Assembly: GCF_003334305.1 (NCBI RefSeq)
Contig: NZ_QOWS01000031.1
Strand: one strand, 5' to 3'
DNA: 37,766 bases
Origin: Escherichia coli
Lineage (GTDB): Bacteria; Pseudomonadota; Gammaproteobacteria; Enterobacterales; Enterobacteriaceae
The position numbers were made by a program, and so were the translations under genes. The notes under the pieces are model-generated. The model was given only the letters and a program-made list of their open reading frames with translations. It was not told the origin of the DNA and did no database searches. Shown here one piece after another: positions 1 through 18,442 of the stretch (positions within the stretch are counted from its first letter, which is position 1; every line of letters begins with the position of its first letter).

Positions 1-156
1 ACCGACATCGTGGTGATGCGCATTATGTGTCGTCGCGGCTTCGAAATGGACTTTGCTGAACTGTTGCTGGAAGACTATAAAGCCTCCCTGAAATATCTCA
101 GCGATCACCCGAAACTGCAGGGTATTGCCCAGCAGAACAGCTTTAAACATACCTGA
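1..156 (+). CDS. gadB: Glutamate decarboxylase beta, C-terminal 51 codons (5' end outside window)
   Basis: Open frame from window edge to TGA at 154-156; translated tail ...[14 protein letters not shown] matches recalled GadB C-terminus; lies directly upstream of gadC as in the gadBC operon. Confidence 0.8.
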
Positions 157-176
157 TAACGTTTAACGGTAACGGT

Positions 177-202
177 GTCCCGAAACGAACCCGTTTCGGG
201 AC
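177..202 (+). other. Perfect 11-bp stem / 4-nt loop hairpin (GTCCCGAAACG-aacc-CGTTTCGGGAC) in gadB-gadC intergenic region; no T-tract
   Basis: Inverted repeat read directly from sequence; sits 21 nt after the gadB stop and 110 nt before the gadC start. Confidence 0.5.
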
Positions 203-311
203 AATTTCCAAAGTCTGTTCACTGGCATTAGCAACGGAAAATATTGTTCTGAATACGCTTCAGAACAAAACAGGTGCGGTTCCGACAGGAATACCGTTTT
301 AGGGGGATAAT

Positions 312-1872: not shown

Positions 1873-1900
1873 GGGAGCGATAAGTCATCGCTCCCTTTTT
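1873..1900 (+). terminator. Rho-independent terminator after gadC (GGGAGCGAT-loop-ATCGCTCCC followed by TTTTT)
   Basis: 9-bp GC-rich stem with 5-nt loop followed by T5 tract, 26 nt after the gadC stop. Confidence 0.7.
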
Positions 1901-1977
1901 CGTGCTTGCTGTCGTATTGACTTAACCGGGATAAGTACGAGAATGAGCGCACATCTGTTTACCGGAAACCAGCACAT

Positions 1978-14984: not shown

Positions 14985-15015
14985 TTCATAACCATCAGTC
15001 CTCAATGACGATTAA

Positions 15016-15049
15016 ACACCATTGCCTGCGCAATGGTGTTTTTGTTTTT
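15016..15049 (+). terminator. Rho-independent terminator after sra (ACACCATTGC-loop-GCAATGGTGT + TTTTGTTTTT)
   Basis: 10-bp perfect stem, 4-nt loop, long T tract. Confidence 0.75.
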
Positions 15050-18413: not shown

Positions 18414-18416
18414 AAA

Positions 18417-18442
18417 AATGGCGCTTCTTAAAGCGCCATTTT
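18417..18442. terminator. Bidirectional rho-independent terminator between yddM (+) and fdnI (-): AATGGCGCTT-ctta-AAGCGCCATT flanked by A-run and T-run
   Basis: 10-bp perfect stem with A7 upstream and TT downstream; placed between convergent genes. Confidence 0.65.

Follow-up and report, generated by a model that had tools for sequence, protein, structure and literature searches.

A conserved stem-loop at the gadB-gadC junction of Escherichia coli and the RNA 3' ends mapped beside it

The junction and its hairpin

The gadBC genes, described in textbooks as an operon, are the core of the strongest acid-resistance system of Escherichia coli. The DNA analyzed here, referred to as the window, is a stretch of 37,766 nucleotides from contig NZ_QOWS01000031.1 (assembly GCF_003334305.1). 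It opens within gadB, the last 51 codons of which occupy positions 1-153 and are followed by the stop codon TGA at 154-156, and it continues through the intergenic spacer into gadC (Table 1). The names gadB and gadC are those given by RefSeq annotation of identical DNA and in all sampled E. coli genomes; one silent difference separates this gadB from that of K-12 strains, and with a loop difference from MG1655 in the gadC terminator it marks the window as DNA of a non-K-12 E. coli. The gadB-gadC junction was found in all 5426 complete E. coli genomes, where five of the matches lie on plasmid-labelled records and up to four matching places occur in a few genomes.

Table 1. Features at the gadB-gadC junction and at the end of the operon, in window positions
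Feature	Positions	Strand	Remarks
gadB coding sequence, 3' end	1..156	+	Open reading frame and translation; RefSeq annotation of identical DNA is glutamate decarboxylase
gadB 3' UTR spacer, single-stranded, from stop codon to hairpin	157..175	+	
Hairpin, perfect 12-bp stem 176-187/192-203, loop AACC 188-191	176..203	+	
Tail AUUUCCAAAG bearing mapped RNA 3' ends	204..213	+	Term-seq U207; TRS peak 203-213, dominant 209
gadC leader, read-through part of the junction	208..311	+	Shine-Dalgarno-like AGGGGGA at 301-307
Second, weaker hairpin in the gadC leader, 10-bp stem, loop UACGC	244..268	+	-10.2 kcal/mol
gadC coding sequence, glutamate/GABA antiporter, 511 aa	312..1847	+	ATG at 312
Canonical intrinsic terminator at operon end, stem GGGAGCGAT/ATCGCTCCC and five-T run	1873..1901	+	

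Positions 177-202 read GTCCCGAAACG-AACC-CGTTTCGGGAC, a sequence with one match in the window at 0 mismatches, still only one when 3 mismatches are allowed, and 0 in 100 shuffles of the window. A first-pass annotation had described it as a perfect 11-bp hairpin inside the gadBC junction and free of a U-tract. Its sequence and place were exact, and the hairpin does lie between the gadB stop and the gadC ATG, but the stem is one pair longer than stated: U176 also pairs with A203, which gives a perfect 12-bp stem closed by the 4-nt loop AACC. Seven of the 12 pairs are G-C, the base of the stem is G+C-rich, and the predicted free energy lies between -19.9 and -20.7 kcal/mol. Shuffling the 155-nt spacer 100 times never yields an equally stable hairpin (z = -6.5), and the wider stretch 150-320 also folds better than its shuffles (z = -3.58). 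The stem starts 20 nt past the gadB stop and ends 109 nt ahead of the gadC ATG.

Only three perfect 12-bp small-loop hairpins are present in the 37.8 kb of the window. The other two, both with 4-nt loops, lie at 15014-15041 and 18415-18442. The sequence of the former is that of a Term-seq 3' end at 1555766(-), downstream of sra (Adams et al. 2021, PMC7815308), and the T-run that follows it marks a canonical terminator.

After the gadB hairpin, the transcript continues as A-UUU-CCAAAG, with AUUUCC in place of a U-run and 3 U in the first 8 nt. A terminator consensus scan requiring at least 5 T in 8 nt does not flag the hairpin with its tail AUUUCCAA, in agreement with the earlier annotation, and an upstream A-tract is absent. 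The covariance models of Rfam 15 gave 0 matches over 150-320 at E-values up to 10; in the rest of the window they gave four weak matches, all far under gathering scores.

Similarity to gadA ends at about position 160, some 4 nt beyond the gadB stop (the gadA match covers query positions 1-61 only), which makes the hairpin a feature of the gadB copy alone. Over its last 57 nt, gadB shows only 0-2 differences among Escherichia species, compared with 9-13% for gadC overall, a pattern that fits concerted evolution of gadA and gadB. The single-stranded spacer between the stop codon and the hairpin is similarly constant, with 0-2 changes per 20 columns among Escherichia species.

RNA 3' ends mapped at the junction

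Positions in strain MG1655 are obtained here as 1,570,801 minus the window position, a conversion verified by Term-seq strings at 207 and 1901.

In Term-seq of MG1655 grown in M63 glucose to OD 0.4, a 3' end classed as 'orphan' appears at 1570594(-) (Supplementary file 1 of Adams et al. 2021, PMC7815308). The sequence printed for this end, TAACGTTTAACGGTAACGGTGTCCCGAAACGAACCCGTTTCGGGACAATTT/CCAAAGTCTG, finishes in ...GTCCCGAAACGAACCCGTTTCGGGACAATTT and corresponds to window U207, the third U past the stem, which lies 4-5 nt beyond it. Presumably the 'orphan' label reflects a distance of 51 nt from the gadB stop, just past what we take to be the limit for 'primary' ends. The next entry on the same strand is the gadC terminator at 1568900(-), and average reads are 33,816.8 at 1570594(-) versus 70,553.1 at 1568900(-) (Adams et al. 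2021, PMC7815308). The latter position is C1901, right after the stem and five T of the operon-end terminator, which carries the TRS label 'Primary gadC'.

The TRS data (RNAtag-seq or Term-seq), obtained independently by a second group with a different method, also place a terminus at 1570588-1570598(-), labelled 'Alternative primary in TU, gadB', with a dominant position at 1570592, a signal of 0.82 and p <= 1e-17 in three replicates (PMC10687069, Supplementary Data 2). In window positions, this interval is 203-213. Mapping of 3' ends had been proposed as a check on the hairpin, and both published data sets place ends at it, in favor of that proposal. Supplements of SMRT-Cappable-seq contain no gadB or gadC entry. 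In the two LB sheets of the Term-seq table, neither the hairpin end nor the gadC terminator is present, and the bicyclomycin data set, which covers LB at OD 0.5 only, has no entry at the hairpin (Adams et al. 2021, PMC7815308).

Altogether, a substantial pool of RNA ends just past the hairpin and another pool runs to the end of gadC. The Term-seq counts, which are uncalibrated as a measure of abundance, would suggest about 1.5 gadB 3'-end-bearing RNAs per gadC-containing RNA. The 3' end at the hairpin is in this sense already known, being present in two published genome-wide tables. Full-text literature searches, with the older Northern papers on gadA and gadBC outside their scope, found no description of a hairpin, terminator or processing site at the gadB-gadC junction or of a monocistronic gadB RNA, and no measurement of the GadB:GadC ratio was found in the literature. 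The hairpin is not mentioned in papers on yhiM, ArcZ overexpression (Bak et al.), CsrA or Brucella. A gadB-only RNA would co-migrate and cross-hybridize with gadA mRNA in older Northerns, and could have gone unnoticed there.

Conservation of the hairpin and of the gadC leader

Within E. coli, the stretch that holds the hairpin (172-207, 36 nt) matches the window allele in only 3604 of the 5426 genomes (at least 94% coverage; 3601 records with at least 99% identity), whereas the adjoining 208-243 matches in 5403 of them (at least 92% coverage; 5394 records with at least 99% identity) and 239-274 in 5070. Three main alleles, with loop AACC (3604 genomes), loop AAGC (1151), or an apical G-to-A change combined with loop CACC (362), make up 94% of the genomes, and all their differences fall in the loop or the apical pair; in the CACC allele, the top G-C pair is broken. 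The apex of the hairpin is thus a hot spot of polymorphism within an otherwise near-invariant spacer, and about 300 genomes carry other variants. Loop-only variation is seen again in the gadC terminator, where positions 1882-1886 read AAGTC in the window and AATTC in the MG1655 Term-seq string.

In other Escherichia species, the hairpin differs by loop changes (CACC, AAUC, CUCU) or by the replacement of an A-U pair with G-U. In E. albertii, 13 of 30 columns differ and pairing is kept: in its stem, GCCCCGGG-C-CGA/UUG-U-CCCGGGGC, both partners of three pairs have changed, and the tail, AAACUCC, holds only one U. In the Escherichia alignment, 95.9% of cells are paired, compared with 30-53% when the partners are slid. 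A shuffle control is only suggestive, the same pair count being reached in 15 of 500 shuffles of these few sequences. The G-U pairs at locus L005 and in E. albertii fit sense-strand RNA only, since each would turn into a C-A mismatch if read from the opposite strand or as a symmetric DNA site. By these alignments, it is the pairing of the hairpin that is under selection, and not its sequence.

Beyond Escherichia, a scan of one genome per species gave 80 gadC loci. With the window counted alongside 45 of these loci, gadB lies directly upstream of gadC at 46 junctions, and the spacer is at least 40 nt in 40 of them. At 37 of these 40 junctions, the most stable hairpin of the spacer reaches -12 kcal/mol or below and begins no more than 60 nt past the gadB stop. 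For 33 of these hairpins, 0 of 100 shuffles are as stable; for the other four, 1-3 are. The hairpin sequences are unrelated between genera (Providencia, Proteus, Yersinia, Serratia, Acinetobacter, Halomonas and Comamonas, as well as alphaproteobacteria). The Providencia/Proteus-type hairpin can be aligned within its group, with compensatory change in 9 of 14 pairs. A canonical U-tract, counted as 6 T or more among the 8 nt past the stem, follows only 6 of the 37 hairpins, and the remaining 31 have about 33% T after the stem, which we take to be roughly the intergenic background, and show no U enrichment. From sequence comparison, a hairpin after gadB appears to be a general property of gadBC operons. 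This recurrence across genera is the most useful fact added here, and the element itself is ordinary in type.

At the six loci with a run of 6-8 T (L008, L012, L055, L057, L014 and L060, which include Yersinia rohdei, Serratia sp. and Comamonas kerstersii), a canonical terminator follows gadB and stands between two genes that are usually taken as one operon. About 35 of the 80 gadC homologs, for example in Hafnia, Morganella, Buttiauxella and Kosakonia (among them loci L009, L017, L018, L020, L038, L042-L049, L051 and L053), have no gadB directly upstream, so the gadB-gadC arrangement is not universal. In some of these, the partner of gadC may be a glutaminase or a differently oriented gadB.

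The gadC leader is itself constrained. Positions 208-311 diverge by 6-9% among Escherichia species, compared with 31-40% at four-fold degenerate sites of gadC between E. coli and the other species, and so evolve 4-5 times slower. A sequence-specific function in the leader is likely on this pattern, whether in control of gadC translation, as a binding site or as an internal promoter; no description of a conserved gadC leader was found. The leader also contains the second hairpin, UUGUUCUGAA-UACGC-UUCAGAACAA, in which 96% of cells are paired across Escherichia and no compensatory change is seen. Read on the minus strand, where TATTTTCC comes next, this hairpin is picked up as terminator-like; it could influence antisense transcripts or the structure of the gadC leader. 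A weak sigma-70-like match at 282-311 (CCGACA, 18-nt spacer, GATAAT; 9/12) overlaps the gadC ribosome-binding region, and a promoter candidate read by hand (TTCACT at about 218-223 with AATATT at about 240-245) falls under the scan threshold.

Formation of the gadB 3' end and comparison with known systems

We read the hairpin as the 3'-terminal stem-loop of a gadB-only mRNA that coexists with the full gadBC mRNA. The explanation preferred here, which we put at somewhat short of an even chance, is that it forms a barrier to 3' exonucleases and guards the end of the gadB message. Transcription of gadBC would produce the stable 12-bp stem-loop in the sense-strand RNA, 20 nt past the gadB stop, at which distance a terminating ribosome is too far upstream to melt the stem. 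The 3' ends would first arise downstream, by endonucleolytic cleavage in the gadC leader or in gadC, or alternatively by ordinary decay of the gadC part or by termination within the untranslated leader with the help of a factor. Trimming by PNPase and RNase II would then proceed until halted by the stem, and the gadB segment would outlive the gadC segment. Together with translation signals, a longer-lived gadB segment could raise the output of soluble hexameric decarboxylase above that of membrane antiporter. The mode of 3'-end formation, the greater stability of the gadB-only RNA and the changed GadB:GadC ratio are what we infer.

The preference for the exonuclease barrier comes from the fit to the protective U-less stem-loops of Dar and Sorek (2018, PMC6061677), and from E. 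albertii and most of the orthologs, which keep the stem where the U's are absent; a stem kept in this way would fit a barrier better than a terminator. Of the possible sources of downstream ends, one based on Rho is disfavored by the sequence after the hairpin, which lacks a rut-like excess of C over G (C/G is 1.14 over 204-243 and 0.80 over 204-311; in sliding 78-nt windows, C makes up 17-26% and G 19-27%), and by the shortness of the untranslated leader, which spans 108 nt and is partly structured. Several observations count against the barrier. In geometry, the stem matches an intrinsic terminator exactly, the three U's after it occupy the most important proximal positions, and the presumed RNA-DNA hybrid, AAUUUCCAA, is rich in A and U, which makes some factor-independent termination plausible. 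Moreover, the canonical U-tracts at six orthologous junctions suggest termination at that position in those species, and the mapped 3' end is listed in the Term-seq tables for M63 glucose only.

Several of these observations speak for the reading of the hairpin as a leaky intrinsic terminator, a serious rival that we rate somewhat below the barrier. Here, hairpin and AUUU would release a minority of transcripts at about 207-211 and let the rest read into gadC, the weak U-tract keeping termination partial and acting as a fixed valve for the gadB:gadC mRNA ratio. A 12-bp stem with a G+C-rich base and a 4-nt loop is typical of terminators, the 3' end maps inside or just past UUU, the reads are about half those of the operon-end terminator, as partial termination predicts, and TRS calls the E. 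coli site an alternative gadB terminus. Orthologs in Yersinia, Serratia, Comamonas and others even carry a run of T6-T8, but 31 of the 37 orthologous hairpins are without U enrichment, and the E. albertii stem is kept by compensatory change, yet is followed by AAACUCC. The E. coli site also failed the consensus scan and has no A-tract upstream, and its mapped end, at +4/+5, is nearer to the stem than the usual release point of +7 to +9, although trimming could explain this. Barrier and leaky terminator have the same outcome, a gadB-only mRNA beside a gadBC mRNA, and both fit.

Factors acting on the gadC leader would give the junction a more elaborate role. As a regulated attenuator or pause site, which we consider improbable, the junction would have its 3'-end formation modulated by Rho, NusG, an sRNA, a protein or gadC translation, and the ratio would shift with acid stress or growth phase. 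The slow evolution of the leader, the presence of 208-243 in nearly all genomes, which implies something sequence-specific there, and the second conserved hairpin at 244-268 are all in keeping with such control, and many regulated premature 3' ends in 5' leaders are described by Adams et al. (2021, PMC7815308). Against it, the predicted fold offers no anti-terminator pairing of comparable strength, 0 Rfam matches were obtained, and rut-like C>G bias is absent; conservation of the leader may also simply reflect control of gadC translation or a promoter. A broader proposal, unlikely but less so than the attenuator, joins the two parts of the junction into a gadBC 'valve' conserved across Proteobacteria, with a U-less stem-loop and a separate regulatory RNA in the gadC leader setting an acid-tuned enzyme:transporter ratio. 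The U-less stem-loop would set the 3' end of a decarboxylase-only mRNA, and the leader would control transcript or translation into the antiporter through a factor, an sRNA or acid-dependent processing. If this were true, the enzyme:transporter ratio would be tuned in acid stress and not hard-wired.

It is also conceivable, at a low probability below that of the attenuator, that the 3' end of gadB yields a functional sRNA or a fragment bound by ProQ or Hfq, with the hairpin as its terminal stem-loop. AdiZ sets a precedent in the mRNA of another acid-resistance decarboxylase, the 3' UTR spacer at 157-175 is conserved, and the 3' end is abundant and stable; conversely, the RNA lacks a U-tail for Hfq, the gadB 3' UTR measures only 51 nt, 0 Rfam families matched, and literature searches, including one for ProQ with gadB, found no such RNA. 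Least probable of all, and hardly credible, is a site for a dimeric protein in the DNA, or a chance or mutational palindrome without function. In double-stranded DNA, the sequence is indeed a perfect 12-4-12 inverted repeat, but the half-site sequence is not kept (E. albertii retains pairing with 13 of 30 columns changed), the loop and apex are its most polymorphic part in E. coli, the G-U pairs become C-A mismatches in a symmetric DNA reading, other genera have unrelated hairpins at this place, and an RNA 3' end maps to the palindrome; chance is excluded by the shuffles. A protein operator was accordingly rejected for the hairpin on the covariation pattern. Of the roles first suggested, as attenuator, processing or stability element, or protein-binding site that could set the GadB:GadC ratio, those acting through RNA are favored over the protein site by the loop variation and the compensatory and G-U changes.

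With a stable gadB-only mRNA, gadB and gadC would not be expressed one-to-one from one transcript. The hairpin may therefore explain in a simple way, in cis, why the soluble hexameric decarboxylase would outnumber the membrane antiporter, and probably helps to make more GadB enzyme than GadC transporter. An equivalent hairpin at 37 of 40 gadB-gadC junctions, in distant genera, would point to a general design rule. Possible uses lie in the engineering of GABA production, in the interpretation of polar effects of gadB insertions, and in the annotation of 3' ends without a U-tract. Operon-internal stem-loops that form 3' ends are well known, and the hairpin changes no concept.

Compared with intrinsic terminators, the hairpin has a G+C-rich stem within the range of 5-14 bp, a short loop and a 3' end near the stem, but it lacks the U-rich tract, with 3 U in 8 nt where the operon-end terminator has five T, as do most of the orthologous hairpins, which are also without a U-run. 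It is therefore not a canonical intrinsic terminator. Partial operon-internal terminators are said to tune stoichiometry in the Rend-seq work of Lalanne et al. 2018; the gadB hairpin is like them in geometry, in the adjoining 3' end, in its place after a more highly needed first gene, and in the read-through past it to a strong operon-end terminator. REP elements between malE and malF were reportedly recognized as intercistronic mRNA stabilizers by Newbury, Higgins and co-workers in 1987, and the gadB hairpin similarly lies downstream of the first cistron, where it would shield the upstream mRNA and raise expression of the upstream gene. Membership in REP/BIME or another repeat family was rejected; the hairpin has no REP consensus and occurs at a median of 1 place per genome, with 2 as the highest count.

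AdiZ, a 3'UTR-derived sRNA from the adiA decarboxylase mRNA of Salmonella, resembles the gadB hairpin in that the gene of an acid-resistance decarboxylase is directly followed by a structured 3' end (bioRxiv 10.1101/2025.06.06.658255). The gadB hairpin differs from it in having no U-tail and a co-transcribed downstream gene. As is generally expected of structured RNAs, the hairpin shows compensatory and G-U changes across relatives. Non-intrinsic 3' ends in E. coli have been found to lie precisely, just past stable U-less stem-loops that guard against PNPase and RNase II (Dar and Sorek 2018, PMC6061677). Unlike the members of that class, the gadB hairpin sits inside an operon, ahead of a gene that needs expression, and has no C>G rut-like bias downstream; like them, it is stable, resembles a terminator in the sizes of its stem and loop, has neither U-rich tail nor A-tract, and is followed within a few nucleotides by a precise steady-state 3' end (Dar and Sorek 2018, PMC6061677).
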